Below, piece after piece: positions 1-59,877 of a DNA stretch of 64,000 bases; the first letter of the stretch is position 1, and each line of letters starts with the position of its first letter. The stretch comes from a bacterium (lineage in GTDB: Bacteria > Patescibacteriota > Minisyncoccia > Phycocordibacterales > PALSA-1337), in NCBI GenBank assembly GCA_025355565.1, contig JANXZK010000022.1:3490-67489 (forward strand). The letters are read 5' to 3'. The position numbers were made by a program, and so were the translations under genes. The notes beneath the pieces are model-generated. The model did no database searches. It had not been told where the DNA came from and saw nothing but the letters and a program-made list of their open reading frames with translations.

Positions 1-427
1 CCGCAATCGAGAGATAGAAGAGCAACATGGTGCCACTTTCTGGCCGACGGTCGATGAGGTATTGAAGCAATCGGATGTCGTTTCCTTACATGTGCCACTC
101 CTCGAGACGACTAAACATCTCATAGATGCTGATAGACTGAGGATGATGAAAAGATCGGCCATACTCGTGAACACTTCTCGTGGCGCCGTTATCCATGAGA
201 TCTCTCTCGTTAAAGCCCTCAAACAGGGGATGATCGCTGGAGCAGGATTGGACGTATTCGAACATGAGCCGGCGCTCTCGCCAGGACTGAAGGAGCTGAA
301 AAATGTAGTGATCACACCACATATCGCATCGTCGACAGTCGAGGCTCGCGGCGATATGGCGCGAATGGCGGCGCAAAATATCATCGATATGTTCGAGACC
401 GGCAAGCCGGCTGACGTGATATACTGA
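1..427 (+). CDS. D-isomer-specific 2-hydroxyacid dehydrogenase, C-terminal part (5' end outside window)
   Basis: Frame is open from base 2 with no upstream stop. Motifs DVVSLHVPL, NTSRGAVIHE and GAGLDVFEHEP match the NAD-binding and catalytic region of the glycerate/phosphoglycerate dehydrogenase family. Confidence 0.75.
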   Translation, partial: RNREIEEQHGATFWPTVDEVLKQSDVVSLHVPLLETTKHLIDADRLRMMKRSAILVNTSRGAVIHEISLVKALKQGMIAGAGLDVFEHEPALSPGLKELKNVVITPHIASSTVEARGDMARMAAQNIIDMFETGKPADVIY

Positions 428-472
428 TACTATATATGATATAATTACCTTAGCCTTCGGGCAGAAATATCT

Positions 473-724
473 ATGTCAGATGGAGTAGAATTTGATGAAG
501 AAAAGAGAACATACGTGAGACCGCCAGGCGCGCCTACCAGTTTTTCTGGTGGCAATGTTTTTAACGAGCAGCCATATATACCAAATGGCGATGAGCCGAG
601 GATGGTCCAGTGGCTCATAAATCACGGCTACGTAAAGAATCCCGCGAGAGGGAATATCGTCCTACTCACAGTTGTAGGTCTGAATATCATCATCATCTTT
701 TTTGTTGTCAAGAACTTTTTATAA
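473..724 (+). CDS. hypothetical small protein with a C-terminal transmembrane helix
   Basis: 83-aa ORF with a hydrophobic C-terminus (IVLLTVVGLNIIIIFFVV). No recognisable family. Confidence 0.3.
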   Translation: MSDGVEFDEEKRTYVRPPGAPTSFSGGNVFNEQPYIPNGDEPRMVQWLINHGYVKNPARGNIVLLTVVGLNIIIIFFVVKNFL

Positions 725-751
725 CTGATAGATATTTCATCATAAATATTC

Positions 752-1594
752 ATGACTCATTCAAATAGACAAGTGAATAGGAATGTCCAATGCTTGAAGA
801 GGGGGTTTACCTTGATCGAACTTCTCGTGGTCATTGCTATCATCGGTACACTTGCTTCTGTTGTTTTAGCGTCTCTCTCGACCGCGCGTGGCAAGGGCAC
901 GATAGCGTCAGGACAGACATTTGATAGCCATACATATAGCGCATTTGGGGCGGATGCTTACGCAGTATACAATTTTGATGAGGGTCCTGGTGATGGTAGT
1001 AAGTTTCTACCGATCGACACATCGGGTAATGGGCATAATTTTGTCAATGATAATGATTTAAATTGTCCGGTCATTCTTAAAGAACCCATCTCAATATCTG
1101 CTGGCATAAAGAGAAACGCTATACAGTTGGATTCATCCACAGCATGTGTGACTGTCTTTTCTGGAAGTAGTTTCGATAAAACAAATGGGTCTGTCTCTTT
1201 TTGGGTAAATCCCGCTTCAATAATCGGAAATAACAATTATATTCTTGATGTCGGGCAAAAATGGGTTTTGGTCAAGTCTGGTAAGATTGAGTCTTTTGGT
1301 CTGAGCAGTAAAATGACAGTCGCGGCGAATACTTGGACTCATGTTCTCATATCATGGGGAGGAACATCTGACCAACTACGTATTTACATAAATGGAAAAT
1401 TTGACAATAACGACGCTAATTTGCCTGGTTTTCTTGCGCCAAATGAATTAGGTTTTGGCAACTCTCCTGATAAGATCAAAATAGACGAACTGGCCATCTA
1501 CAACCGATCTATGCAAACAGCGCAGGTGCAGAAGATATACGCTGAGGGGCTCTCGAGACACATGATGGCGGCGGTGAATGACTTATTTAGGTGA
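752..1594 (+). CDS. type IV prepilin-like protein with a C-terminal LamG/concanavalin-A-like domain
   Basis: The N-terminus (LKRG|FTLIELLVVIAIIGTLASVVLA) is a class III signal peptide with G-1, F+1 and E+5. The C-terminus (KIDELAIYNRSMQTAQVQKIYAEGL) is a LamG jelly-roll signature. Confidence 0.75.
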   Translation: MTHSNRQVNRNVQCLKRGFTLIELLVVIAIIGTLASVVLASLSTARGKGTIASGQTFDSHTYSAFGADAYAVYNFDEGPGDGSKFLPIDTSGNGHNFVNDNDLNCPVILKEPISISAGIKRNAIQLDSSTACVTVFSGSSFDKTNGSVSFWVNPASIIGNNNYILDVGQKWVLVKSGKIESFGLSSKMTVAANTWTHVLISWGGTSDQLRIYINGKFDNNDANLPGFLAPNELGFGNSPDKIKIDELAIYNRSMQTAQVQKIYAEGLSRHMMAAVNDLFR

Positions 1595-1639
1595 CAAATC
1601 TAGGTGACAAAATTTGCACATTTTCTAAAATAGTGTAAG

Positions 1640-2368
1640 ATGGCACACATGCTATCACTAGAAGTAACCAAGCGAGATATGAAGCAAAATCCGGCTACCA
1701 TCCGCAAAGCAGGCAACATTCCTGCGGTTTTTTATGGTCCAAAAGAGGCAAATACGCCCATCACGGTGAACGCCAAGGAGTTCACGAAGATGTGGAAAAG
1801 CGCAGGCCAATCCTCCGTTATCATTTTGAAAGAAGGCACCAATGAACACGAAGTCCTCATACACGAGATCGACGTGCATCCGCTCTCGGGCGACATCAGA
1901 CATGCTGATTTTTATGTCATCGAAAAGGGCAAGAAGGTCAAGGTGTCAGTTACGCTCGTCTACGATGGAGTCTCCCCAGCTGTGAAGGAAAAAGGCGCGA
2001 TATTGGTCAAGGTCCGACGCGAGATAGAAGTAGAGGCAGTGCCTCGAGACCTTCCTCATGAGATCAAAGTAGACGTTTCCAAACTAGTAGAATTCACCGA
2101 TGTCATCAAGGTCAAGGATCTCGCATTGGCTCCGGGCGTTACATTGGTCAAGATCGGTCCAGAAGAAGTGATCGCTTCAGTCTACGAAGCCAAGGAAGAA
2201 GTCGAGGTAGCTCCAGCGGCTATCGATATGTCAGCGATCGAAGTCGAAGCCAAGGGTAAAGAATTGAAGGATGGTGAAGTCGCGGCACCTACAGGCGACG
2301 CGAAGAGCGTTCCAGCAAAGGGTGATGACAAAAAAGGCGGAGAGGGGAAGAAGGAGGTAAAGAAATAA
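1640..2368 (+). CDS. rplY: 50S ribosomal protein L25 / general stress protein Ctc
   Basis: The N-terminal 170 aa align to L25/Ctc (LEVTKRD..., AVFYGP, DFYVIEKGKKVKV). It has the acidic and lysine-rich C-terminal tail typical of the Ctc form. Confidence 0.85.
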   Translation: MAHMLSLEVTKRDMKQNPATIRKAGNIPAVFYGPKEANTPITVNAKEFTKMWKSAGQSSVIILKEGTNEHEVLIHEIDVHPLSGDIRHADFYVIEKGKKVKVSVTLVYDGVSPAVKEKGAILVKVRREIEVEAVPRDLPHEIKVDVSKLVEFTDVIKVKDLALAPGVTLVKIGPEEVIASVYEAKEEVEVAPAAIDMSAIEVEAKGKELKDGEVAAPTGDAKSVPAKGDDKKGGEGKKEVKK

Positions 2369-2400
2369 AGCCATAATCGCTCCATGCTATACTAACAGGC

Positions 2401-3801
2401 ATGAAATCTATCAAAATGGTGGTTTTGGTCGTAGTTGCCGTATTCGGTATGTCATTCACGGCTATTATGTTATCGATTCTTTTCTCTTCTTTGGGAATTT
2501 CACTTATCGCTAACGCACAGACATTGCAATGCGATACTCCGGTACAAAAGGCCAAGTGTCAGGCAGATCTGGCGCAAGCAGAGGCGGAAGCCAAGGCGGC
2601 GCAAGCTCAACTCGTTTCCGCGCAGGCAGAGAGCTCTTCCTTGAAGAGAGATATCAATGTTTTGGACGCCAAGATCAAAGTCGCGCAGGCCAACATAAAG
2701 GCAAAGAATCTGCTCATACAGACTCTGGGCAATGATATCACGCAGAAGCAGAGCCATATCAACGATCTCGAAGGGCATGTCTCTAGAGGCAAAGAAACAC
2801 TGGCGACGATATTGCGAAAGACCAACGAGATCGATGCTGATACGTTGCCAGAAGTGATACTTTCCCAATCTAGTGTGGCGGGTTTTTTCCAAGATTTGGA
2901 TACTTTCCAGTCGGTTCGTGAGGGACTGAAGACGACATTTGATCAGTTGAGATCGGATGAGGCCCAAACCACAGCTCTGAAAGATGCGTTGGATAAACGT
3001 AAGAATACCGAATCAGACGCCAGGTATGCTATACAGCTCGAGCAGAAGAATATCCAATCGGATCAGACACAGAAAACGCAATTATTGAACATCAGTAAAG
3101 GCAATGAGAAAGCCTACGGTACTCTATTGGCTCAAAAACAGGCCAAGGCGGCGCAGATCAGGGCGGCATTGTTCCAATTGGCGGGAGCGAAAGCTATACC
3201 ATTCGGAGATGCTCTATCCTACGCGAATGCCGCATCAAAAAAGACTGGTGTGAGACCGGCACTCATACTCGGCATCATCAAACAGGAGTCGAATCTGGGG
3301 TCGAACGTCGGGACATGCTATATGACCGACCCTGTAACTGGAGCTGGCATCAGTGTAAAATCTGGAAAATCAGTTTCAAGCGTGATGAAACCGACGCGCG
3401 ATGTTGCGCCATTTATGGCAGTGACTTCCGCGTTGGGCTTGGATTATAGGAACACGCCGGTGTCATGCCCGCTCTCTATAGGTTATGGAGGTGCTATGGG
3501 TCCTGCACAATTCATCGCTTCGACATGGGTTGGCATCGTCGATCAAGTGACGGCTGCGCTAGGGATCTCCGGCCAAGCGAATCCGTGGAATCCGGCGCAT
3601 GCATTCATGGCATCAGCATTGTTGCTGGGAGAGAAAGGTGCCTCGAGAGGTGGATATACCGCGGAGCGCAACGCCGCCTGTGGCTATTACGGCGGTGGAA
3701 GCACTTGTAGATCATCAAATGGCAGTACTGGTTATGGAAACAGCGTCCTCTCATACGCCACTGGTTTTCAACAGGATATCGATCAATTAGTTGGCTTATA
3801 G
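2401..3801 (+). CDS. membrane-anchored coiled-coil protein with a C-terminal lytic transglycosylase (SLT/GH23-like) domain
   Basis: N-terminal transmembrane segment followed by about 250 aa rich in Q/A/K heptad repeats. C-terminal motifs LILGIIKQESNLGSN (catalytic E-S) and GAMGPAQFIASTW resemble SLT motifs. Confidence 0.6.
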   Translation: MKSIKMVVLVVVAVFGMSFTAIMLSILFSSLGISLIANAQTLQCDTPVQKAKCQADLAQAEAEAKAAQAQLVSAQAESSSLKRDINVLDAKIKVAQANIKAKNLLIQTLGNDITQKQSHINDLEGHVSRGKETLATILRKTNEIDADTLPEVILSQSSVAGFFQDLDTFQSVREGLKTTFDQLRSDEAQTTALKDALDKRKNTESDARYAIQLEQKNIQSDQTQKTQLLNISKGNEKAYGTLLAQKQAKAAQIRAALFQLAGAKAIPFGDALSYANAASKKTGVRPALILGIIKQESNLGSNVGTCYMTDPVTGAGISVKSGKSVSSVMKPTRDVAPFMAVTSALGLDYRNTPVSCPLSIGYGGAMGPAQFIASTWVGIVDQVTAALGISGQANPWNPAHAFMASALLLGEKGASRGGYTAERNAACGYYGGGSTCRSSNGSTGYGNSVLSYATGFQQDIDQLVGL

Positions 3802-3853
3802 AAAAGTCTCAGAGAAAAATATCCGTGCCACTGAACCGTTCTGTGAGACTTTT
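3802..3853. terminator. bidirectional stem-loop between convergent genes
   Basis: AAAAGTCTCAGAG ... CTGTGAGACTTTT is an inverted repeat matching 11 of 13, flanked by an A-run and a T-run, between the 2401..3801 (+) and 3864..6062 (-) genes. Confidence 0.45.
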
Positions 3854-3863
3854 CTAGTAACTC

Positions 3864-6062
3864 CTAAATAGTCAAAATAACCGGTATCACCATCGGTCTC
3901 TTTGCAGTTTTCTGCATCAGATATTTACTGACTACATCAGTGACGTTGTCCTTGATGTAGTCGACGTTGATCGGGTTTTGACCATGAGCGGATTTCTCGA
4001 CAGATTCTCGGATGAGGAGACGAACTTCATGGAGGAGTTCCTGAGATTCACGCAGATAGACGAAGCCACGCGAGATGATGTCCGGGGACTTCTTCAACTT
4101 TCCGGTCTGACTATTCAATATGCCAAAGACGATGAATATGCCGTCCTGCGCCAATGCTTGGCGATCGCGGATGACTACGTCTTGGACATTGCCGACGGAG
4201 AATCCATCGACGAGAACCAGCCCTGATGGAGCTTTCTCTTTCAATCTTACTAGTTTGGTGCCACCATTCTGTATCTCGATCACTGAGCTATTGTCTGGAA
4301 CGACGACGTCCTCTTCTTTCAAACCATTGGCTTCCTTGGCGACGTCAGCATGCACGCGGAGCATGTAGTGATAGCCGTGGAGCGGCATGAAGAATCGAGG
4401 TTTGATCTGACGATGTATCCACAATGTCTCGTCACGATACGCGTGTCCGGTCGAGTGGACCTCGGCTGTGCGATAATGGATGATCTTGGCGCCTTGGCGT
4501 GATAGGTTATCTTTGAGTTTCTGCACGGCGCGCTCATTTCCTGGGATGACTGATGAGGACAATATGACGGTGTCTCTAGTGTTGATCTTGATCTTTGTAT
4601 GTGTCTTGTTGGACATGCGCATGAGGGCGGCGAATTCGTCGCCTTGCGCGCCTGTTGCCAATATGATGATACGATCTGGGGGATAATTGTCCATGTCGCC
4701 ACTGTCGATGATCGTGTCCTTCTTGCATTTCAAGAGGCCTAGATGCTTACAGACTTCGATATTGGATTTTAGACTACGTCCTTCGATCACGACTTTTTTA
4801 TTATAGAGTTCGGCGAATTCGACCATCTTCAAGAGTCTCTCCAATAGAGAAGAGAATGTGGCGATGATGAGTCGTCCTTTGGAATTCTTGATGTATTCTT
4901 CTAGGTTCTTATGGACTTGTCTCTCGGGAGTTGAAAATCCAGGTATCTCTACGTTAGTCGAGTCTGCCATGAGCATGAGGACCTTTTCATCCTTGAAAGC
5001 ACGCTCGTACTCAGCAGCTTCTTCTGCCGTCGGCTGACCATTTTCATGGTCCATCTTGAGGTCACCTGTATGCACGATCGAACCATATGGGGTCTCGATG
5101 ATCACTCCCATCGCGTCAGGGATGGTGTGGGTGACGGAAAAGAATTTTACTTTGAACTTGCCTATCGTCACTGTCGAATTTCGTTCAACCAGATTTATGT
5201 CCAATTTGGCGAGATGAGGGAATTCCTCTTGACGCTTTTGGATCAAAACTGAGGTTAGCATACGTGTATATACTGGTGGGTTGCCGATCCTGGGCATGAT
5301 ATATGGAATACCACCCGTGTGATCCAAGTGACCGTGTGTGATGATGAGGGCTTTGATCATACCCAGCCTCTCCTCGAGATATTTGGTATTTGGCAGGATG
5401 TAATCGATACCTGGCGTGTTCTCATCCCTGAATTGGAATCCCAAGTCGATGATGATGATCTCTCCAGCGTACTCGATGGCGGTCATGTTGCGGCCGATCT
5501 CTTCGACACCGCCCAATGGAATGATGCGGATCGTGTCAGCCGCGATCGGTGGGATCTTATCTTCGGTACTTTGGTATGTGAGAGATCGTGCATGTGCAGG
5601 TCCACTACGTTTCATCGGTCTCAATTCTTTGCGGATAACGTTCATGCGAGCCCCGGCGATGTGCCTGACGGCTTCGGGAAGCTTTTTAGCGCCTTTTCCT
5701 AGAACGATGCGGTGACCATTCCCACTGAGGAGATTTGAGGTCGGGGGTCGGAAGTTGGATGTGGGTATCGTCGAGGTTGCTGGCATGGAAGCACTCGCAG
5801 GTGACGAGCTACGCAAAGTTCGCGTGGCGAAACGGTTCACTTGATTGCCATGATTTACATTGTTTCGGTTGGTGTTATTGTTGCCTCCAGCATTTTGATG
5901 CCAAGGCTTCGCTCCACCCTTGTAGAGAGTCGTCCCTTTGTATGGCGTGGTCGGAGTCGGTCTAGCCGAAAACCTTGGTCTGGGAGCGCCAGCGGTAGCT
6001 TGGACAGGTCTCGTGGTGTTCGTTATGATCGGCTTCTTGATTGGTTGTTGCTCGTTCATCAT
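3864..6062 (-). CDS. rnj: ribonuclease J (beta-CASP metallo-beta-lactamase RNase) with an N-terminal low-complexity extension of about 175 aa
   Basis: HGHLDHTGG metal-binding motif, IIPLGGVEEIGRNMTAIEY start of the RNase J core, beta-CASP region and C-terminal domain. The N-terminal 175 aa are rich in N/T/P/R/S and look disordered. Confidence 0.85.
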   Translation of the reverse strand: MMNEQQPIKKPIITNTTRPVQATAGAPRPRFSARPTPTTPYKGTTLYKGGAKPWHQNAGGNNNTNRNNVNHGNQVNRFATRTLRSSSPASASMPATSTIPTSNFRPPTSNLLSGNGHRIVLGKGAKKLPEAVRHIAGARMNVIRKELRPMKRSGPAHARSLTYQSTEDKIPPIAADTIRIIPLGGVEEIGRNMTAIEYAGEIIIIDLGFQFRDENTPGIDYILPNTKYLEERLGMIKALIITHGHLDHTGGIPYIMPRIGNPPVYTRMLTSVLIQKRQEEFPHLAKLDINLVERNSTVTIGKFKVKFFSVTHTIPDAMGVIIETPYGSIVHTGDLKMDHENGQPTAEEAAEYERAFKDEKVLMLMADSTNVEIPGFSTPERQVHKNLEEYIKNSKGRLIIATFSSLLERLLKMVEFAELYNKKVVIEGRSLKSNIEVCKHLGLLKCKKDTIIDSGDMDNYPPDRIIILATGAQGDEFAALMRMSNKTHTKIKINTRDTVILSSSVIPGNERAVQKLKDNLSRQGAKIIHYRTAEVHSTGHAYRDETLWIHRQIKPRFFMPLHGYHYMLRVHADVAKEANGLKEEDVVVPDNSSVIEIQNGGTKLVRLKEKAPSGLVLVDGFSVGNVQDVVIRDRQALAQDGIFIVFGILNSQTGKLKKSPDIISRGFVYLRESQELLHEVRLLIRESVEKSAHGQNPINVDYIKDNVTDVVSKYLMQKTAKRPMVIPVILTI

Positions 6063-6160
6063 TTTTTGTTTATTCTACGTACGCTGATAAATTGTATTCG
6101 ACTTATTAATGTTGTTGATCTGATTCATGGTGGAGAGCTCTGATCTCCGAGTTCCACTTT

Positions 6161-7912
6161 TCATTCTTTTTTACCACTCGCAAAGAATTTCCATACATTT
6201 TCTGTCTTTAGGTACCAGTTGGTCACAGAATTCCATCTATCTCCTGGCACGGTTATGTCATGCAAAGTGATGCCTTTTAGAGTCTTGGGAACTATATATA
6301 TGAAATTCGGGGAATATAGGAAGATGGCGGGAATATCGGCAGTCAATAAGTTTTCGAACTGGGCATATTTCGTTGCCCGGACATCGAGATCGCTAGTTGT
6401 GCGGATATCCTCGAGGAGCTGGTCGATCTTGCTATTTGTGTACATGGAGACGTTCAAGCCAGGAGCTTTGATCTGTGAAGAATGCCAGAAAGCATACAAG
6501 TCGCGATCTTTTCCTATGAGCTCACCAAATAGTAGGGCATCATATTTCCTTGTGCGGATGACATTTTGATAGAGGTCGCTCGCGTTGAAGACACGTAGAT
6601 CGATCTGCGCGCCCATCTTCTCCCAAGAAGCTTTGACCATCTCCGCCGCCTGTTTTAGGTCTGGCGTATCGGCTGTGTATATGTCAAAAGAGATAGTTTG
6701 AACGACTTTCTTTGCATTGGCTTTAGAATAGATCCCAGTTGACAGGTCTTTCTTCCAGCCATTCTTTTCTAGGAGAGCTTGTGCGGCTGTGATATCTGGG
6801 ACCTTGACCGCGTCATCACCAGTAGGGACGATATTTGACGGCAATGGTTCGTCGATAGGGGAACCATAACCAGAAAGGACATTGTCGACGATCGCCTTTC
6901 TATCGACGGCCATGTTGAGCGCTTGTCGCACTATATCGTCGGCTAGTACGGGAGCCTGATTTTGATTGAAAAAAACTCCGAATATTCGCGGCAATGGCGA
7001 TTGCAGGACGGCATATGACGCGGCTTTGTCCGTCGCCAGTTTTGCCGCCTCGGCTGCTCCGACTGTTGCCAGACTATCTATCGTTCCTTCATCTATCGCG
7101 GTCAGAGCTTTTTCTTCGTCAGCGAAGAATGAAAATGTTATCGTGTTCACATAAGGGACTTTCCCGTAATAGCCGCTCCATGTGGAGAGGTTGTAACTGA
7201 CCGGGATGCCGGCGCCATCATTCTTGACTGAGGATATCTCGTATGGTCCGGAACCGATCGGCTCGATATTGTAGTGGCTGAAGATGAACTGGTCATCGTT
7301 CACGGTATTCCATATATGCTTTGGCAAGATGCCGACGGTGGTGTTCGTAAGAAATGGCGAATAGGCTTGTTTTAGGACGAAATGTATCTCTGTTGGCGAG
7401 ATGATCTGTACCGTGACGTTGGTCCAGTCTGATTTGCGAGGACTCTTCAACACTGCGTCTTGGATCTTTTGGATGGTGAATGCCACATCATCGGTAGTGA
7501 GGAGTGTGCCGTCTTGGAAACGGATGTCACTTCGCAGAACGAAGCTATATGTGAGGCCGTCATCGGAGACTTTGTATGATTTTGCCAAGTCGGGGACCAA
7601 GCGCCCATCGTCCCATCGCATCAAGCCTGAATAGACGAGCGAAGAGATGTCACGGTCGACGTCGGTTATGGCGAGGATCGGATTGACACTCCTCGGTAGA
7701 CCGATCAGTCCTTCGCGCAGTTCGCCACCGCTACTCGGTATCTCTGTCATGAAATGGCTATTGATCTTGCCTGCCATGACGATGGTCGCAATGATCGCCG
7801 CCAGCACGAATACGCCAAAGATCGCCTTTTCTGTCGCGGAAAATTGTCTGATGTAATTTATGATCTTCGGGCTTTTCTTGAAACCCAGTTCTTTTGGTTG
7901 TATGTCGGGCAC
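6161..7912 (-). CDS. ABC transporter substrate-binding protein, family 5 (OppA/DppA-like), membrane-anchored
   Basis: N-terminal transmembrane helix, then an SBP_bac_5-like region (LVYSGLMRWDDGRLVPDLAKSYKVSDDGLTYSFVLR...). No cognate permease or ATPase is nearby. Confidence 0.7.
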   Translation of the reverse strand: MPDIQPKELGFKKSPKIINYIRQFSATEKAIFGVFVLAAIIATIVMAGKINSHFMTEIPSSGGELREGLIGLPRSVNPILAITDVDRDISSLVYSGLMRWDDGRLVPDLAKSYKVSDDGLTYSFVLRSDIRFQDGTLLTTDDVAFTIQKIQDAVLKSPRKSDWTNVTVQIISPTEIHFVLKQAYSPFLTNTTVGILPKHIWNTVNDDQFIFSHYNIEPIGSGPYEISSVKNDGAGIPVSYNLSTWSGYYGKVPYVNTITFSFFADEEKALTAIDEGTIDSLATVGAAEAAKLATDKAASYAVLQSPLPRIFGVFFNQNQAPVLADDIVRQALNMAVDRKAIVDNVLSGYGSPIDEPLPSNIVPTGDDAVKVPDITAAQALLEKNGWKKDLSTGIYSKANAKKVVQTISFDIYTADTPDLKQAAEMVKASWEKMGAQIDLRVFNASDLYQNVIRTRKYDALLFGELIGKDRDLYAFWHSSQIKAPGLNVSMYTNSKIDQLLEDIRTTSDLDVRATKYAQFENLLTADIPAIFLYSPNFIYIVPKTLKGITLHDITVPGDRWNSVTNWYLKTENVWKFFASGKKE

Positions 7913-7948
7913 GATGTAAAAAAGTATCTCGGCGCCTATTTCCTAGAA

Positions 7949-8188
7949 TTAAATAAGGTTTAGCAACGCCGATACCGCAAACAAGATAGCAACTACGATG
8001 GTAATGATGAATAGCCCTCTCTCCATGCCACGTCGTGTATGGAATGCCGAACTGAAGTTGTCGCTCCCACCGAAGGCGCCACCTACTTGGGCGCCTGTTC
8101 TTTGGAGCAGTATTATAGCGACCAAAATAACAGACAAGATGATCTCTACGTAGGGAAGGAGTGACTTCATTGGGGATGATAGTAGCAT
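7949..8188 (-). CDS. secG: preprotein translocase subunit SecG
   Basis: 79 aa with two transmembrane helices and the SecG signature LLQRTGAQVGGAFGG. Confidence 0.7.
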   Translation of the reverse strand: MLLSSPMKSLLPYVEIILSVILVAIILLQRTGAQVGGAFGGSDNFSSAFHTRRGMERGLFIITIVVAILFAVSALLNLI

Positions 8189-8236
8189 ATATAGCTTTTT
8201 TATGCAAACGATGTATTCCCGAGTTCAACTTACCTG

Positions 8237-9112
8237 TTATCTAGAAGCGATATCTAGGTGAGAATGTAAACCTTCAGCGTATATGCGTTCCATATCAGCT
8301 GACGCGAGCGCAGAAGTATAGATGCGAACGTTGTCTATGTCACCGACGAAATTATAGCTTGAATTATAAGGCGGAAATGAACCGATCGAGATCGTGCCAT
8401 TTGTCGGTGTCCAATATGTCAGATCCGCCACGTTGCCGTTTTGGGGTGAACCTATCTGTTTACCATTTATATAGAAAGTAATTTTTGCACCACTGACTGA
8501 TGCGGCGACATTAGTCCAAGAATTCAATCCTATAGATACACCGCTATCAACGTTACCACTACGACAGGCAGAATAATATTGCAAATTATTACTAGTATTT
8601 AGGACGAGGCCAACAATTCGGTCGTTACAGGATTGTCCATTGTTGTCGGCACCTCCAAATAAGACTATTACGCATATAAAGTCAGATGAACAGTTAAATG
8701 ATGTTCGTACCCAAGCGCTAACAGAGAAAGATGTCGTTTTCGGTAGACCATTGACTGTGCTGAAGGACACGTTGTCTCTTGATCCAAAATGTAATGCATT
8801 CCTTTGAACTCCGTCTGGTATTATTGTCGTTCTAATACTACGCGTTCCGGTATTATTGTTGCCAGAAAGATCATAGACAGAATTACTTGCTGCATCTGTC
8901 TCATCAAAATTCCATATACCAGTAGCGTCTACTCCGAGTGCTTGATAGGTATGAGTATCGAATGTTAGTCCCGCTCCAATACTCGCTTTAGTTCTAGCTC
9001 CACCTAGGGCCGCGAGTACAACTGATGCCAGCATACTTATTATGGAAATAACGACTAGCAACTCTATGAGAGTAAAGCCTTTCGTACGGACATCGTTTTG
9101 GTATTTATTCAT
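8237..9112 (-). CDS. type IV prepilin-like protein with a C-terminal LamG domain (paralog of 752..1594)
   Basis: N-terminus TKG|FTLIELLVVISIISMLASVVLAALGG. C-terminus DIDNVRIYTSALASADMERIYAEGL. Same architecture and the same conserved C-terminal IYAEGL motif as the first copy. Confidence 0.75.
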   Translation of the reverse strand: MNKYQNDVRTKGFTLIELLVVISIISMLASVVLAALGGARTKASIGAGLTFDTHTYQALGVDATGIWNFDETDAASNSVYDLSGNNNTGTRSIRTTIIPDGVQRNALHFGSRDNVSFSTVNGLPKTTSFSVSAWVRTSFNCSSDFICVIVLFGGADNNGQSCNDRIVGLVLNTSNNLQYYSACRSGNVDSGVSIGLNSWTNVAASVSGAKITFYINGKQIGSPQNGNVADLTYWTPTNGTISIGSFPPYNSSYNFVGDIDNVRIYTSALASADMERIYAEGLHSHLDIASR

Positions 9113-10538: not shown

Positions 10539-10766
10539 ATGAAAAGAATTCTTGTCGGAATCGGCCTTGTAGCCTTCGGTTTCGCTGTGGCGGTTTTGGT
10601 GATCGGCTGGAAAAATGCCAGCACACAGACTGCGGCAGTGGAAGTAGAAAATGTCGCCAGCACTGCGGATGCGGCGGTTCAAATGACCGTTACAAACGAA
10701 GTCGTTGGTAGCAATGTGCTGCGCATCCATGTAGCGAAGATCAGTTTCGCCGGTGCGCGTCACTGA
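10539..10766 (+). CDS. small secreted/membrane protein, hypothetical
   Basis: 75 aa with an N-terminal signal or transmembrane segment (ILVGIGLVAFGFAVAVLVIGW) and a strong RBS. First gene of the high-GC cassette. Confidence 0.4.
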   Translation: MKRILVGIGLVAFGFAVAVLVIGWKNASTQTAAVEVENVASTADAAVQMTVTNEVVGSNVLRIHVAKISFAGARH

Positions 10767-10826: not shown

Positions 10827-11948
10827 ATGAAGAATTCGTTTAAATCGGTTCTGTCGGTATTGTTAGTCACGGTTGCGATCCTGGTCGGTCTCTGCGCGTT
10901 TGCTCAGGTGCCGCCCAATCCGGTCCCGCCGCCGACTCCGGTCGCCGATCTCAGCATGATCACCAATCACGCTGAATTGGTTTCCAGTCAGTTCAAGAAG
11001 GTCCAGGGGATAAGGGTTAACATCCAGGTTGACGGCAGCGCCGACTCCTGGTTGCCGAATGCCTTTTTCTCCTACACGAATACGGTCAAGACACTCGAGG
11101 ACATCATGGGCATCGTCACGAACAACTGGTGGGACGTGCGGGTGGTGGACACGAGGGCGACGATAACAATTGCCGTGAAGTTCTACGACACGGCAAGTTA
11201 CGACGCCATTCAAGGTTACCTTGGTGTTAACGCCGTGGCACCCAAAGCGTTGTTCGAAGGCTATGCCGGCGGACAACCCGAACTTGGGAAGGGTGGAGGC
11301 TATGTTCTCCCCGACTGGGCCGAGCAGGTCAGTATGCGTTTGGTCGGGAATGTGTTTGTCACTATGACCAACGTTACTTCCGCTCATCTGGTCTACACCA
11401 ACAATGCTGGTCAGTTCCAAAGCATGGATCTGCCGGTAACTTGGGGTCAAGGATTCGAGTATCCCCCAGATTTCGCCGGTCAGGGGATATTAGTTCTCAC
11501 CTGGATGGTTCCGGATAAAGCTGGGAACTTCTGGTGGTTCCAAAAGGCGTACGACGTCAGCAGCAACACGGAGGTGCCGATTACGGATGTTCTCGTTCGG
11601 GCATTGATTACTGATTCGGAAGATTTCCGGACGTCGGTAGATCAGTGGACGCTGAAGTATAACCTATACTCCTACCAGGGCTTTGGGAAGGTGCCGTTAT
11701 TGACGCCGACCTACAATAAGAGCGTCAACAACATCTACATCGAAGTGACCACGAGCGAAGGCGACTTCGCAAAGGGATACACAATTGAACACTTATCAAC
11801 CGGCAAGAAGACCACAGTCAGCGTGCCTGACGGCCAGATCGGTGTTGATGTGAAATTGCCAGGCGGCAGTTTCCATATCGTGCCCATCGGCCTCGATCTC
11901 CTGCCTTGGGAGATGTACAGTTGGTACGGTGGTGGAGGCAAAGGCTAA
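10827..11948 (+). CDS. secreted hypothetical protein (signal peptide, proline-rich linker, glycine-rich C-terminus)
   Basis: Signal peptide MKNSFKSVLSVLLVTVAILVGLCAFA, then PPNPVPPPTPV, ending in YGGGGKG. GC content is about 58% against about 42% for the flanks. Confidence 0.55.
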   Translation: MKNSFKSVLSVLLVTVAILVGLCAFAQVPPNPVPPPTPVADLSMITNHAELVSSQFKKVQGIRVNIQVDGSADSWLPNAFFSYTNTVKTLEDIMGIVTNNWWDVRVVDTRATITIAVKFYDTASYDAIQGYLGVNAVAPKALFEGYAGGQPELGKGGGYVLPDWAEQVSMRLVGNVFVTMTNVTSAHLVYTNNAGQFQSMDLPVTWGQGFEYPPDFAGQGILVLTWMVPDKAGNFWWFQKAYDVSSNTEVPITDVLVRALITDSEDFRTSVDQWTLKYNLYSYQGFGKVPLLTPTYNKSVNNIYIEVTTSEGDFAKGYTIEHLSTGKKTTVSVPDGQIGVDVKLPGGSFHIVPIGLDLLPWEMYSWYGGGGKG

Positions 11949-38563: not shown

Positions 38564-40339
38564 TTGATCATAGCTCATTCCATGGACGAAAATCGCATCA
38601 CATATTTCGCGCAGACTGACGCTCGTAACAAGCGAGTGAAATTTGGCATCAAAGCCAAGGATCGAACTAGACATGTTTATGTGATCGGAAAGACGGGTAT
38701 GGGTAAGTCCACCATGCTCGAGAATATGGCCGTGCAAGACATCCAAAACGGCGAGGGGATGTGTTTTATCGATCCACATGGAAAGACTGCCGACCTCATG
38801 CTCGAATATGTCCCCAAGGAGCGTATCAGAGATGTGATATATATCGCGCCATTCGATATCGAGCACCCGATCTCATTTAATGTGCTCGAATCAGTCGATC
38901 CAGACAAGCGTCATCTAGTGTCATCGGGACTCATGAGTACATTCAAGAAGATCTGGGAGGACGCCTGGTCCGCTCGTATGGAATATATTTTGACCAATAC
39001 TTTGCTCGCCCTCCTCGAATATCCAGGCGCGACATTGCTCGGTGTGAATAGGATGCTTTCGGATAAAGCGTACAGAACAGAAGTCGTGAACAATATCAAG
39101 GACCCTTCCGTAAAAGCCTTTTGGCAAAAAGAATTTGCCAATTATACCGAGAGACAAGCGGCAGAAGCAGTACCAGCTATACAGAACAAAGTCGGTCAAT
39201 TCACCGCAAATCCGCTCATCCGCAACATGATCGGTCAGTCTGAGTCGTCATTTGATTTCCGCGAAGCGATCGATCACAGAAAGATCGTCATCATCAACTT
39301 GTCAAAGGGAAGGATAGGCGATGAGAATATGAAGCTTCTCGGAGGTCTATTGGTGACGAAGATCTATCTCGCCGCTATGTCTCGAGCTGATGTTCCGGAT
39401 AGGACGATGCAGATGTTGCCAAATTTTTACTTATACGTCGACGAGTTTCAAAATTTCGCCAATGCTTCGTTCGCCGATATCCTATCAGAAGCTCGCAAAT
39501 ACAAACTGAATCTGACGATCGCTCATCAGTATGTCGAGCAGATGGATGAGATCGTGCGTCCGGCAGTTTTCGGCAACGTTGGAACGATGATCGCATTTCG
39601 CGTCGGCGCTACGGATGCAGAGCTCATGGAAAAGGAGTTTGCTCCGCAATTCGTCATCGAAGATCTGGTCAACCTCGGTTTCGCGCAAATATATCTGAAA
39701 TTGATGATCGATGGCCTATCATCAGCTCCGTTCTCCGCGACTACGCTGCCACCGATATCGCATCCAGATCATTCATTTGTGAAAGACATCATCGCGGCGT
39801 CACGTGAGCAATTCTCCAGACCTAGAGCGGAAGTGGAGGAGGCGGTAATCAGATTCCACAATCCTGTGGTGGCCAAGACCCGTGAGGAAGTTCCCCCGAA
39901 ACGAATGGTGTCGACTTCTGCTGAAGTTGCACCTCGTTCTCCTTCGGTCCAGAGACACGATTCTGCTGAATCGCCGTCGCTCAGTCCGAAAGTCGTTTCT
40001 GTGGAACCTCCTCACAGGTCTTCCGTTTCAGGATCCGTTAAGCTATCGACTCCAGCACAGCCACCAATCCAAGTATCGACACAGGCAGCAATCCATGCAC
40101 CGGTCCACAAACCTTTTGCGCCAGTCAGTCTTTCAAATCTTGCGCCAAAGGTGGAAGCACGCGTGCCGAAGGTAGATCCGAAAGTGCCGACGAAACAGAA
40201 TGTGAGCGACCTAAAGAATGCATTGGCGGCGGTTATGAAAAAAAGTTCTGCCAAAACGGCTCCAAAAGTTACGCCTTCAAAAGATCATCCAGAAGAGATC
40301 TCTGAGGACGTATTGCGCAACGTTTTGAATGTTGATTAG
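38564..40339 (+). CDS. P-loop ATPase of the DUF87 / HerA-VirB4-VirD4 (TraG/TrwB-like) superfamily with a disordered Pro/Ser/Val/Lys-rich C-terminal tail
   Basis: Walker A VIGKTGMGKST, CFIDPHGK, and a Walker B-like LYVDEFQNF. No N-terminal transmembrane segment. The last 150 aa are low complexity. Confidence 0.6.
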   Translation: MIIAHSMDENRITYFAQTDARNKRVKFGIKAKDRTRHVYVIGKTGMGKSTMLENMAVQDIQNGEGMCFIDPHGKTADLMLEYVPKERIRDVIYIAPFDIEHPISFNVLESVDPDKRHLVSSGLMSTFKKIWEDAWSARMEYILTNTLLALLEYPGATLLGVNRMLSDKAYRTEVVNNIKDPSVKAFWQKEFANYTERQAAEAVPAIQNKVGQFTANPLIRNMIGQSESSFDFREAIDHRKIVIINLSKGRIGDENMKLLGGLLVTKIYLAAMSRADVPDRTMQMLPNFYLYVDEFQNFANASFADILSEARKYKLNLTIAHQYVEQMDEIVRPAVFGNVGTMIAFRVGATDAELMEKEFAPQFVIEDLVNLGFAQIYLKLMIDGLSSAPFSATTLPPISHPDHSFVKDIIAASREQFSRPRAEVEEAVIRFHNPVVAKTREEVPPKRMVSTSAEVAPRSPSVQRHDSAESPSLSPKVVSVEPPHRSSVSGSVKLSTPAQPPIQVSTQAAIHAPVHKPFAPVSLSNLAPKVEARVPKVDPKVPTKQNVSDLKNALAAVMKKSSAKTAPKVTPSKDHPEEISEDVLRNVLNVD

Positions 40340-56777: not shown

Positions 56778-57810
56778 ATGTTGTTATTCTCGTACAAAAC
56801 AGATAGTAGTTGTTTTTCAAGTATTCAGTTTCAGCATTGTATGTTTTGGTATATGTCTTGGAAACATCCGAGAGATTTTCTGCAAACAAGAATGTATCGT
56901 TGGATTTTTGATAAGCCAGCAGCAGATATTTAGCCTTAAAGTAATCGACATTTTTTACATACCTTTGCATAAACTCATTTGATTCCGACAGTGCCCATGT
57001 ACTAACAAATAAATCAACATGTTCATTGGTTAGCAGTTTACCAATCTTTTCCAGTATTTTTTTGTCCAATGGTATTATGTTTATCAACCCCTTTTTTATT
57101 TGAATATTTTGGCCATGAACCATGTTGATAGCTGAGCTTCCAAAAATTGCTTTTAGGTAAAGAGCTTGAATATATGAGAATATGGGGATGTCAATGATAG
57201 TGTAGGTACAATCATAATTAATCTGCTTATATATCTTTGCAAGGTTGCCGTATCCTCCACCGACTTCAACAACATTGTTTATGTCTCCTAGTTTAGTTTT
57301 TGTTTCTAAGCAGAATTTTGTCAGGTGATAGAGGTGATGAATATTATTTCCAGATGTAAAGTATTCGATATCATTTAACATTGGTTTTCCGACGTTATAT
57401 TCACGTAAGATGTTTCTAGCGGAACGCAAATCGTAATGGTCAGAAATCAGTCGTTTTTGAATTTCTTTCCAACCTCGGAAACTATAAACGAACATAGTGT
57501 TCTTGATTACGGGGTAGTTGAGAAAAGAAAAAGAGAAGTTATGTAAATAATAGTTTTCGATTTCACTCGTGTTTTTTCTCCATTGATCAATCACAAAATC
57601 AGCATAATCATATTTGTCTTTGTTTTCCAGATATAGATTTTTCATTTCGTGATATATTGTTTTGTACAATTTCTGACCAATTCGTCTTGAAAACGGTGAG
57701 ACGAGTTGAGAATAAATGGTTTTATATAAATCTAAAACGGTTGTATTCCGTTTTATTTTAGAGACTAACTCCCGTATTCTATTTTTCATTTTTTTGAATT
57801 CTGAAATCAA
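56761..57810 (-). CDS. putative SAM-dependent methyltransferase-like protein
   Basis: VVEVGGGYGNLAKIY is a GxGxG-type motif in the class I methyltransferase context. 349 aa. Confidence 0.4.
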   Translation of the reverse strand: MISEFKKMKNRIRELVSKIKRNTTVLDLYKTIYSQLVSPFSRRIGQKLYKTIYHEMKNLYLENKDKYDYADFVIDQWRKNTSEIENYYLHNFSFSFLNYPVIKNTMFVYSFRGWKEIQKRLISDHYDLRSARNILREYNVGKPMLNDIEYFTSGNNIHHLYHLTKFCLETKTKLGDINNVVEVGGGYGNLAKIYKQINYDCTYTIIDIPIFSYIQALYLKAIFGSSAINMVHGQNIQIKKGLINIIPLDKKILEKIGKLLTNEHVDLFVSTWALSESNEFMQRYVKNVDYFKAKYLLLAYQKSNDTFLFAENLSDVSKTYTKTYNAETEYLKNNYYLFCTRITTYVQSR

Positions 57811-59047
57811 ATAATAATGCCATCCGCCCTATGCTATTTCCACCATAAATCAATGATCTCGGATTATTTTTGTCGTCAATAATCTCAATGCCTAGATTCA
57901 ACTTATGATCAAACGTCATTATCATTGGTCTGTGAATGTTGACATTGTAGAGAAATAACCCAGTATTGAATGTGAATGGCGGTATCTCGGCTGTGACTGA
58001 GTAATCACCTACCTCGAGGTTGCCGACATCCATCGTCTTGTCAGAAGGGGATGCGAGAAGCAATATTTCTCCTTGATCAAAGAATGCCAGTGACACCATC
58101 GTCTTGGTAAGTGGTTTGAAAACAGAAATATCTGTCTTGATAAAGAATCTTTCTGAGACCGGTATTCTAGCCGACGGTTTTTCATCTTTATCGAGAATAG
58201 TGACTCTGGAGATTTGTGCATCTTTGCTATTGTCAACGCTAAAATCAGTGATGGCGTTCGCGTGCTCGCCTTTGTTCAAATAGTGGTGTATCACCTTATC
58301 AGTGTCATCGAACATCTTGAACTCGCCTTTTTCGAGCAGGATAGATTTTTTGCATAGATTCTGTATAACGCCCATATTATGGCTTACGAACAATATTGTC
58401 CTGCCTTCTTTTTTTGAAATCTCATCCATCTTTCCTAGACATTTCTTTTGGAACTCCGTATCACCGACGGCTAACACTTCATCGACGATCAATATATCTG
58501 GTTCCATGTGAGCGGCGACTGAAAAGGCGAGCCGGACATACATGCCGCTCGAGTAATATTTTACTGGAGTATCGAGGAACTTTTCGATGCCAGCAAATTC
58601 GACGATCTGATCGAATTTCTTGACTATCTCTCTTTTTGTCATACCGAGGATCGCACCATTTAACATGATGTTTTCTCGTCCAGTGAGCTCTGGGTGAAAA
58701 CCGGTACCGACTTCTAGTAGACTGCCGACAGTTCCGTGAATCTTGATCTCACCAGTTGTTGGTGGTGTGATCTGGGAGATGATCTTTAGTAAAGTTGATT
58801 TGCCTGCACCATTTCTGCCGATGATGCCTATAACCTCTCCTTTGTTAACTGAAAAGTTTAGATCTTTCAGTGCCCAATAATCTTCTCTGGATTGGAAACC
58901 TGTAACTTGTTTCGCTTTTGCTTTTAGAAAACTAAACGGAGACTTGAGCGCATTCATTAAAACGTCGCGCAGAGATATGTATCTGCCTTGCTGATGGTTT
59001 ATGTTGTATTTCTTTCCTAGATTTTTTACTTCAATGATTGGTTCCAT
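57779..59047 (-). CDS. wzt: polysaccharide ABC exporter ATP-binding protein (Wzt/TagH-like) with a C-terminal carbohydrate-binding extension
   Basis: Walker A GIIGRNGAGKSTLLKII, LSGG-like signature YSSGMYVRLAF, Walker B ILIVDE, plus a C-terminal non-ABC domain of about 150 aa. Confidence 0.85.
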   Translation of the reverse strand: MEPIIEVKNLGKKYNINHQQGRYISLRDVLMNALKSPFSFLKAKAKQVTGFQSREDYWALKDLNFSVNKGEVIGIIGRNGAGKSTLLKIISQITPPTTGEIKIHGTVGSLLEVGTGFHPELTGRENIMLNGAILGMTKREIVKKFDQIVEFAGIEKFLDTPVKYYSSGMYVRLAFSVAAHMEPDILIVDEVLAVGDTEFQKKCLGKMDEISKKEGRTILFVSHNMGVIQNLCKKSILLEKGEFKMFDDTDKVIHHYLNKGEHANAITDFSVDNSKDAQISRVTILDKDEKPSARIPVSERFFIKTDISVFKPLTKTMVSLAFFDQGEILLLASPSDKTMDVGNLEVGDYSVTAEIPPFTFNTGLFLYNVNIHRPMIMTFDHKLNLGIEIIDDKNNPRSLIYGGNSIGRMALLFDFRIQKNEK

Positions 59048-59052
59048 ATATT

Positions 59053-59877
59053 TTATACTATATCTGCGAAATACCTTTCGACTTTCTTAAATATATAAAT
59101 GCCTACGAACAGCAATACTAAGCATGCCACGAACGATATTCCGATAAGTTCCCAGTTGATGGGTGCCGTTCCCAATAGAGCAGCGCGAGCACTCTGTATC
59201 GCTCCAGTCATCGGATTTAGAGCTAGTAAGTACGAATACTTTCCAGCGATGCTTGCAGGATATATGACTGGTGTGATGAATAACAACATTTGGATGAAGA
59301 ATGGGAGAGCGTATCTGACGTCGCGATATTTTACATTGATTGACGCTAGAATGAGCCCGAAACCGACTGATGCCATGAATGAAATGATCAAGACCAGTGG
59401 GATCACGATGATGCTCGACGGTTGGGGTGCAAATCCATAGAAGATCATCATTACTGCCAAGATTATAGCGGCGATGAAAAAGTCGACTAATTTTGTTAAT
59501 ACTGACGAAAGTGGCAAAATTAGGCGAGGAAAATATACTTTTGTAATGATCGCTTGATTTGCAATGAGACAGTTGCTGGTTTCACTCAATGCCGTTGAAA
59601 AAAACTGCCAAAATAGGAGCCCTGTGAATACGAAGATAGGATAGGGGATGCCATCTGATGGGACCTTCGCAAGACTTCCAAAAAAAACAGTAAAAACAAC
59701 CATGGTTATAAGCGGTTGGAATATAGCCCATGCGATGCCGATCATCGTCTGTTTATATCTAACCTTCAGGTCTCTCCATGTAAAGAAATACAATAGTTCC
59801 TTGTATTGCCAGAGCTCTTTGAGATCAGATAGGTGAAAAAGCTTCTTTGGTCTGATGACCGTGACCTTTGTTGACAT
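59053..59877 (-). CDS. wzm: ABC-2 type polysaccharide exporter permease (Wzm/TagG-like)
   Basis: Six predicted transmembrane helices and the ABC-2 family signature region. Translationally adjacent to wzt. Confidence 0.8.
   Translation of the reverse strand: MSTKVTVIRPKKLFHLSDLKELWQYKELLYFFTWRDLKVRYKQTMIGIAWAIFQPLITMVVFTVFFGSLAKVPSDGIPYPIFVFTGLLFWQFFSTALSETSNCLIANQAIITKVYFPRLILPLSSVLTKLVDFFIAAIILAVMMIFYGFAPQPSSIIVIPLVLIISFMASVGFGLILASINVKYRDVRYALPFFIQMLLFITPVIYPASIAGKYSYLLALNPMTGAIQSARAALLGTAPINWELIGISFVACLVLLFVGIYIFKKVERYFADIV

Follow-up and report, generated by a model that had tools for sequence, protein, structure and literature searches.

LamG-headed prepilins encoded on a Patescibacteria contig: a pair of candidate pilus adhesins

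The two prepilin-LamG genes

The stretch of DNA analyzed here (64,000 nucleotides of contig JANXZK010000022.1, assembly GCA_025355565.1, from a bacterium of the Patescibacteriota; "the window" in what follows) carries two genes for proteins that join a type IV prepilin signal to a LamG domain: open reading frame (ORF) A, at 752..1594 on the plus strand, encoding 280 amino acids (aa), and ORF B, at 8237..9112 on the minus strand, encoding 291 aa. We consider it reasonably probable (about 0.6) that both belong to a large family of LamG-headed type IV pilins in Patescibacteria and that they diverged from each other long ago. Their common architecture, a class III prepilin signal fused to LamG, had been proposed in an original prediction made by reading the DNA, and it is borne out by Pfam and TIGR02532 profiles, by AlphaFold2 (AF2) modeling and by sequence and Foldseek comparisons with the Protein Data Bank (PDB). 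The same prediction described paralogues on opposite strands about 7.5 kb apart; the orientation is confirmed, but the spacing is 6.6 kb between the genes, or approximately 8.4 kb end to end.

Both proteins begin with a short charged leader that ends in Gly and is followed by Phe at +1, Glu at +5 and some 20 hydrophobic residues, as expected of a type IV pilin signal. The leader of ORF A, MTHSNRQVNRNVQCLKRG, is 18 aa long (752..805, plus strand), ends at the Gly-1 cleavage site and leads into the mature N-terminus FTLIELLVV, which contains Glu5 and starts at position 806. That of ORF B, MNKYQNDVRTKG, is 12 aa long (9077..9112, minus strand), likewise ends at Gly-1 and is directly followed by the same FTLIELLVV with its Glu5. 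Written with a slash at the point of cleavage, the sites read ...LKRG/FTLIELLVV (ORF A) and ...RTKG/FTLIELLVV (ORF B), and the hydrophobic stretches that follow are KRG/FTLIELLVVIAIIGTLASVVLA and TKG/FTLIELLVVISIISMLASVVLA, respectively. The Pfam family N_methyl (PF07963, gathering cutoff 21.2 bits) matches residues 16-39 of ORF A with 30.3 bits and residues 9-33 of ORF B with 30.8 bits, and TIGR02532 (IV_pilin_GFxxxE, cutoff 16.3 bits) scores 34.6 and 30.2 bits. A six-frame motif scan found no third G/FTLIELLVV-type prepilin site in the 64-kb window.

Further toward the C-terminus, Laminin_G_3 (PF13385, gathering cutoff 27.6 bits) is recognized with 53.4 bits (E 4.1e-14) as a core at residues 133-260 of ORF A (1148..1531, plus strand) and with 74.1 bits at residues 110-272 of ORF B, so that profile comparison leaves the C-terminal domain of both proteins a LamG domain, as first read. 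In ORF B the whole LamG/concanavalin A (ConA)-like beta-sandwich, delimited by phmmer alignment to the PDB entry 4qvs, Pfam, the structure model and Foldseek, covers approximately residues 64-275 (8288..8923, minus strand); by alignment to ORF B, the jelly-roll of ORF A is likely to start soon after the pilin helix alpha1. The C-terminal motif is IYAEGLSRH in ORF A (residues 262-270; 1535..1561, plus strand, located by alignment) and IYAEGLHSH in ORF B (residues 277-285; 8258..8284, minus strand), where it lies in a predicted C-terminal helix (residues 271-290); judging from the ORF B model, the ORF A motif would sit in such a helix as well. The alignment thus displays the shared IYAEGL(S/H)(R/S)H that had been noticed earlier as common to the pair, but the motif is not particular to these two proteins, being a hallmark of the whole family in an alignment of 70 of its sequences (A2). 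BLASTP aligns ORF A with ORF B from end to end (33% identity, E 5e-31), the likeness being concentrated in alpha1N (84%), with only 25% identity in the LamG domain.

Predicted structure of the LamG head

ORF B was modeled by AF2 with A2. The model lacks Met1, so that model residue n is ORF residue n+1, and it is confident (predicted local distance difference test, pLDDT, 87.4; predicted template modeling score, pTM, 0.84). It places in succession a long helix (model residues 14-61), a beta-sandwich of about 15 strands (62-264) and a C-terminal helix containing IYAEGL (270-289). The long helix is a predicted alpha1 of approximately 50 residues, with a block pLDDT of 88-95, and corresponds to ORF residues 15-62 and to 8927..9070 on the minus strand. 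Matches to pilins in the PDB, e.g., Geobacter PilA-N, cover alpha1 only (ORF B residues 10-47). The best PDB sequence match is 4qvs, the stand-alone structure of a LamG domain from an S-layer-domain protein (family-profile E 8e-24), which phmmer aligns to ORF B residues 64-275. Since this alignment starts at residue 64, there is no room for a conventional pilin beta-sheet head. The antiparallel beta-sheet packed on alpha1C that constitutes the canonical head is absent, and the jelly-roll comes directly after alpha1 in ORF B; as modeled, the LamG sandwich stands in for the pilin head.

When the model was compared with the PDB by Foldseek, it matched domain 4 of the arabinanase AbnA (5hon, E 1.2e-11), a structure solved with bound ligand, as well as the lectin domain of a trans-sialidase and the Hc-N domains of clostridial neurotoxins and NTNH; LamG-type modules were matched with a probability of 1.00. 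These fold neighbors, in particular AbnA domain 4 and the ganglioside-binding toxin Hc, suggest that the LamG heads may bind carbohydrates or other ligands.

The family in Patescibacteria

Searches with ORF B returned at least 778 proteins, and nearly all among the matches listed are approximately 255-312 aa long and carry PF07963 together with PF13385; where they are named, their sources are Paceibacterota, Taylorbacteria, Parcubacteria or "Patescibacteria group". The ORF A search gave the same family plus generic small pilins. A protein identical to ORF B (P0001) is present in the metagenome-assembled genome (MAG) GCA_043724765.1 and also in Logan contigs, and among the genomes seen a Ca. 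Taylorbacteria MAG (L090) comes nearest, with ribosomal protein L25 81% and an RNase J fragment 94% identical. Two family members occur on several contigs, and in one case (L006) they form a tandem pair. Scanning contigs with the FTLIELLVV pattern yielded at least 80 loci, mostly generic prepilins of Verrucomicrobiota, Lentisphaerota and Planctomycetota, among which only L007-L010 hold true family members, and a profile search of 1.84 billion representatives produced 798,553 matches, swamped by giant multi-LamG repeat proteins. LamG_3 domains like the one in the pilins are found in giant proteins of up to ~7,700 aa, with dozens of LamG repeats.

Throughout the 70 sequences of A2, FTLIELLVV including Glu5 is invariant. 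It is followed by the consensus ..AR.KA.IAAG..F....Y.A.GA.A.G.WNFDE, and the C-terminal end reads IYAEGL..H.LA, with Y conserved in 66, A in 58, G in 60 and H in 51 of the 70. Averaged over all pairs, identity falls from 82% in alpha1N to 44% in alpha1C plus linker and to 25% in the LamG head, which also has many indels, and reaches 38% in the C-terminal helix.

Recombination between the two copies

The opposite orientation of the genes had led to the proposal that recombination or inversion between the copies varies the adhesins, and DNA identity, repeats, a collinear assembly and positional counterparts all fail to bear this out. What favors either inversion or gene conversion is geometry only, that is, paralogues facing each other on opposite strands across some 6.6 kb. 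The DNA-level alignment for recombination tracts shows that the genes are 49.6% identical over aligned nucleotides and share no long tract; their longest common word has 12 nt (AATTTTGATGAG, coding for NFDE), and the best 60-nt window is 65% identical. A single inverted repeat joins them, 14 nt at 93% within the IYAEG codon stretch, and there is no long one. Neither the near-identical tracts nor the specific inverted repeats that characterize pilE/pilS-type systems, invertible segments or shufflons are therefore found here. An inversion would moreover flip the genes for RNase J, L25 and SecG. NCBI contig L001, apart from the window the only assembly to span both genes, has them in the same arrangement, and a Logan contig that covers the ORF B side only (L002) agrees with the window there. 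The annotated genes of the window include no recombinase. In other genomes, the ORF A site has strong positional counterparts (in five genomes) and ORF B has a single, looser one; at least the ORF A copy is therefore ancient. Recombination between the copies is effectively refuted by the DNA, and ORF A and ORF B are old paralogues, independent genes rather than a recombination cassette.

Gene neighborhood and pilus machinery

ORF A lies between a small membrane-protein gene and rplY, which encodes L25. The small gene (473..724, plus strand), delimited by alignment A3 with its homologues and without a Pfam match, encodes a tail-anchored membrane protein of 83 aa and ends 27 nt upstream of ORF A. 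Promoter and terminator scans gave nothing above shuffled background; a promoter-like match at 416-445, upstream of the small gene and itself not above that background, gives no more than a hint that this gene is transcribed as one unit with ORF A. Between ORF A and ORF B are genes for L25, a coiled-coil SLT-like protein, RNase J, an SBP_bac_5 lipoprotein and SecG. ORF B belongs to the co-directional string alr - ORF B - secG - SBP_bac_5 - RNase J, and past the alanine racemase gene (alr) lies the EF-Tu/ribosomal-protein operon.

Pfam scans of 30 further ORFs, together with motif scans for the Walker A and His box of PilB and for the GGGDxK motif of PilD, found no PilB, PilC, PilD, PilM or PilT in the 64-kb window. 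Among 868 Patescibacteria genomes, pilB/T/M/C homologues have been reported in most phyla (preprint, PMC11623550). Conventional Patescibacteria pilins of 140-190 aa adjoin PilB-type ATPases in three loci (L031, L038, L044), of which the one from Zambryskiibacteriota, a related lineage (L038), encodes PilM, a PilO-like protein, PilB, a response regulator, PilT, PilC, a pilin, PilD and a second pilin. Over 33-37 aa, the alpha1N segments of the two proteins share 70-86% identity with conventional Patescibacteria pilins, including PilB-adjacent ones (L038, L044), and this near-identity is the main argument from sequence that the two proteins would use the conventional-pilin machinery.

The neighborhood also bears on a different explanation, which we regard as unlikely, namely that the two proteins are not pilus parts. 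Their class III signal and alpha1 would then be a membrane anchor, or a very short pseudopilus stalk, for a surface glycan-binding LamG domain that serves in nutrient capture or in association with the cell's own wall or S-layer. In the loci examined, LamG-pilin genes always lie apart from pilus machinery, amid genes for the SLT-like lytic transglycosylase, alanine racemase, SBP_bac_5 and SecG, which fits such anchored lectins, as do the lack of a canonical pilin head and the S-layer-domain protein from which the best-matching LamG in the PDB comes. The archaeal "bindosome", in which sugar-binding proteins carry class III signal peptides, offers a likeness. However, the synteny may merely be inherited gene order, and the N-terminal sequence points the other way: alpha1N, 82% conserved and matching bona fide PilB-adjacent pilins, appears to be under more constraint than a simple anchor needs, and Glu5, which matters in filament assembly, is invariant.

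Occupancy and evolution of the pilin site

The order of genes at the ORF A site (2-hydroxyacid dehydrogenase or aldolase, small tail-anchored protein, pilin, L25, SLT-like protein) recurs in other genomes, and positional counterparts of ORF A were found on the contig that encodes P0016 and in L005, L009 and L090. What occupies the site varies: the window, L090 and L009 have a LamG pilin there, L005 has both a LamG and a conventional pilin, L016 and L091 have a conventional pilin only, and L092 has none. For ORF B there is one looser counterpart in L007, where a LamG pilin is found 4.6 kb upstream of SecG-SBP-RNase J, with order and orientation as in the window. Pilins in counterpart positions are 31-40% identical, compared with 52-94% for the flanking genes (L005, L007, L090). 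By this measure the LamG pilins are the fastest-evolving genes of their neighborhood, and rapid evolution of the head is as expected for an exposed adhesin.

The small tail-anchored protein is itself conserved at the site as a product of 79-94 aa (L005, 9751-9990; L009, 10767-11015; L016, 4457-4741; L090, 4001-4258; L091, 4001-4267; L092, 4001-4240), with an N-terminal ..F(D/E)E(D/E)K.. motif, a (W/F)L(I/L)..G..K segment and a C-terminal transmembrane (TM) helix. It is kept whether the next gene encodes a LamG pilin, a conventional pilin or L25 itself. An obligate partnership with the pilin can be dismissed, because L092 keeps the small gene without one; the small protein is a marker of the site.

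Site occupancy is relevant, too, to the possibility that the LamG pilins build, as major subunits, a thick filament of their own with a lectin head on every subunit, comparable to the archaeal pilins that consist of alpha1 and a beta-sandwich. We judge this very unlikely, although the presence of a conventional, major-pilin-like gene at the ORF A site in L016 and L091, the linker-less succession of alpha1 and beta-sandwich, the retention of Glu5 and the great abundance of the family, often in several copies per genome, would agree with it. Conventional small pilins co-exist beside LamG pilins (L005) and adjoin the machinery, and the head, with its mean identity of 25% and many indels, evolves too fast for homotypic packing contacts.

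A more speculative scheme, improbable in our view, holds that the LamG jelly-roll has wholly replaced the pilin head and that the conserved C-terminal IYAEGL helix may re-dock LamG onto alpha1, converging on the archaeal alpha1 plus beta-sandwich pilins. Such subunits could polymerize as the main block of a lectin-sheathed filament, or they could come and go at a conserved chromosomal "pilin site" (small membrane protein, then LamG pilin, conventional pilin, both or none, then rplY), by which Paceibacteria would change their host or substrate specificity.

Proposed role

The reading that we prefer, and to which we give somewhat better than even odds, is that ORF A and ORF B encode low-abundance, PilD-processed pilins whose LamG heads give the pilus a lectin-like binding surface. 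Judging from their sequences, both proteins are made as prepilins whose short, basic leader has Gly as its last residue. This leader would be removed, and Phe1 N-methylated, by a PilD-type peptidase whose gene would lie elsewhere, and by virtue of its hydrophobic alpha1N the subunit would be pulled out of the membrane and assembled into a pilus by the type IV pilus machinery. The LamG pilin would most likely be of low abundance, because its jelly-roll directly follows alpha1 and is roughly double a normal pilin head in size, and it would be located at the tip or sparsely along the filament, showing a lectin-like surface. The ligands of this surface would be glycans or other molecules of a host cell or substrate, and the variable LamG loops, together with several paralogues per genome, would supply differing binding specificities. 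The role as pilus adhesin or minor pilin, put forward in the original prediction, is made plausible by the precedents of PilC (PMC9934059) and of Saccharibacteria (PMC11623550), but is unproven.

Several points weigh against low-abundance LamG pilins of this kind. There is no PilB, PilC, PilD, PilM or conventional pilin in the 64-kb window, and pilus machinery was also not found in the LamG-pilin loci examined from other genomes; the two proteins are tied to a pilus by sequence logic alone. As modeled, they have no separate head or flexible linker, unlike the characterized modular pilins PilB and PilC, and their packing in a filament is unproven. Ligand binding is suggested by the fold only, and LamG domains also bind proteins or play structural roles. 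The best PDB sequence match (4qvs) comes, moreover, from an S-layer-domain protein, and Glu5 is kept in both proteins, so nothing appears to mark either of them as the tip-most subunit.

For the uncultivated Paceibacteria/Parcubacteria, very abundant, fast-evolving and multi-copy lectin-headed pilins are a reasonable candidate for the determinants of specificity in attachment to hosts or substrates, and the proteins are small enough for expression and glycan-array tests.

Other features of the window and related loci

Downstream of L25, and directly 3' of its gene in all related loci with the ORF A site, lies a gene (2401..3801, plus strand) for a protein of 466 aa with an N-terminal signal or TM segment, a long coiled coil and a weak match to the SLT/SLT_2 lytic transglycosylases; its identity among these loci is 39-61%, and it is possibly a cell-wall remodeling enzyme. 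RNase J (3864..6062, minus strand) has an N-terminal extension of approximately 90-170 residues of low complexity, rich in Asn, Pro, Thr and Ser. In the Logan contig L002, the corresponding region has a 640-aa gene call and a 97-aa ORF on the opposite strand, and the length difference is probably one of start codon or annotation. Between alanine racemase and the EF-Tu/ribosomal-protein operon, and in both other assemblies, are genes for a 75-aa membrane protein with sub-threshold DUF matches only (10539..10766, plus strand) and for a 373-aa secreted or membrane protein without significant Pfam match (10827..11948, plus strand).

A gene at 38564..40339 (plus strand) encodes a 591-aa ATPase with weak matches to TrwB_AAD_bind, DUF87/HerA and TraG-D_C, which resembles a VirD4/TraG-type coupling protein and stands alone, with no other recognizable type IV secretion genes nearby. 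Next to it, a low-GC glycan-biosynthesis island extends from approximately 40400 to 62300, mostly on the minus strand, with a GC content of 0.34-0.41 between 42 and 59 kb. It encodes several GT2/GT11 glycosyltransferases, FkbM and other methyltransferases, NDP-sugar dehydratases or epimerases, nucleotidyltransferases, a GHMP kinase, HAD phosphatases and a Wzm/Wzt-type ABC exporter (57779..59877). Both the MAG and the Logan assemblies break up at this island (contigs L003, L087-L089), which suggests heterogeneity at the strain level. At 59940..62324 (plus strand) is the gene for a 794-aa protein with a Wzy_C domain (O-antigen ligase family) and C-terminal TPR repeats, in a bacterium presumed to lack lipopolysaccharide. 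The Wzy_C Pfam family includes pilin O-oligosaccharyltransferases (PglL, PilO/TfpO), and this protein could glycosylate surface proteins, possibly pilins.

In related loci, a 755-aa multi-TPR protein, cut at the locus edge, is encoded near the LamG pilin on the P0016 contig, and in L005 a gene at 1-4295, about 6 kb upstream of the LamG pilin, encodes a giant protein, longer than 3,700 aa, that matches Peptidase_S74 weakly.

Comparison with known systems

The architecture of ORF A and ORF B belongs to one already catalogued. "Modular pilins" were defined by Raynaud et al. (2021, PNAS; PMC8179133), and the combination IPR012902-PF13385 was the commonest architecture among them (229 proteins in InterPro; Dataset S1 of the same paper), the first representative in their Fig. 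8 being a protein of the candidate phyla radiation (CPR; Ca. Magasanikbacteria). ORF A and ORF B have the same domains, the prepilin methylation motif and Laminin_G_3, and in this respect join the IPR012902 motif to a domain that is not specific to type IV pili; they do not contain a complete small pilin module with a short loop, only alpha1 preceding LamG. That census was made by domain signature only and does not describe the Paceibacteria-type family, with its length of ~255-312 aa, WNFDE linker, IYAEGL C-terminal helix and LamG as head. Full-text literature searches found no paper specifically on the Paceibacteria LamG-pilin family.

A functional model for ORF A and ORF B is PilC of Streptococcus sanguinis, a type IV pilin with a lectin module of the ConA-like/LamG superfamily, which binds sialylated glycans and glycosaminoglycans and has been modeled in a pilus-tip complex, in a monoderm (Shahin et al., 2023, PNAS; PMC9934059). 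The pil locus encodes PilC, a protein of approximately 53 kDa in which loops connect a pilin head, small and distorted, to an Ig-like module and this in turn to the lectin module. ORF A and ORF B, by contrast, are orphan genes whose products, of approximately 30 kDa, have alpha1 fused directly to the jelly-roll. With 280 and 291 aa and no Ig-like module, they are not PilC orthologues. Since PilC is missing from the 60 best PDB matches of the family profile (as it is from the top 50 Foldseek matches), the two lectin-pilin fusions are probably independent. The nearest kin of the head are instead stand-alone PF13385 modules, namely AbnA domain 4 (5hon/5ho0), 4qvs and neurotoxin Hc-N (Foldseek E 1e-11; profile E 8e-24 to 1e-14). 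Unlike the heads of ORF A and ORF B, none of these modules is fused to a pilin helix, and their ligands differ among themselves, so that they do not predict the specificity of the pair.

Closer in phylogeny are the lectin-like minor pilins of Nanosynbacter lyticus TM7x (Saccharibacteria), PilX1, a jelly-roll resembling L-type lectins, and PilX2, a propeller that contributes to the binding of episymbiont to host and is needed for its efficiency (bioRxiv 2024 preprint, PMC11623550). They share with ORF A and ORF B the superphylum and the underlying principle of a pilin with a lectin-like beta domain, but are encoded inside pilus loci, whereas ORF A and ORF B lie outside such loci, with canonical G/FTLIE signals and no separate head. 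The literature has thus already introduced the idea, both with modular lectin pilins at large and with the lectin-like minor pilins of Saccharibacteria, and the adhesin reading adopted here is the standard one; ORF A and ORF B add a member, a well-defined example with structural and syntenic detail, and no new principle. Three features set the family to which they are assigned apart from the known lectin pilins, namely the lack of a head module or linker, the conserved C-terminal helix and the location of its genes as orphans among housekeeping genes.

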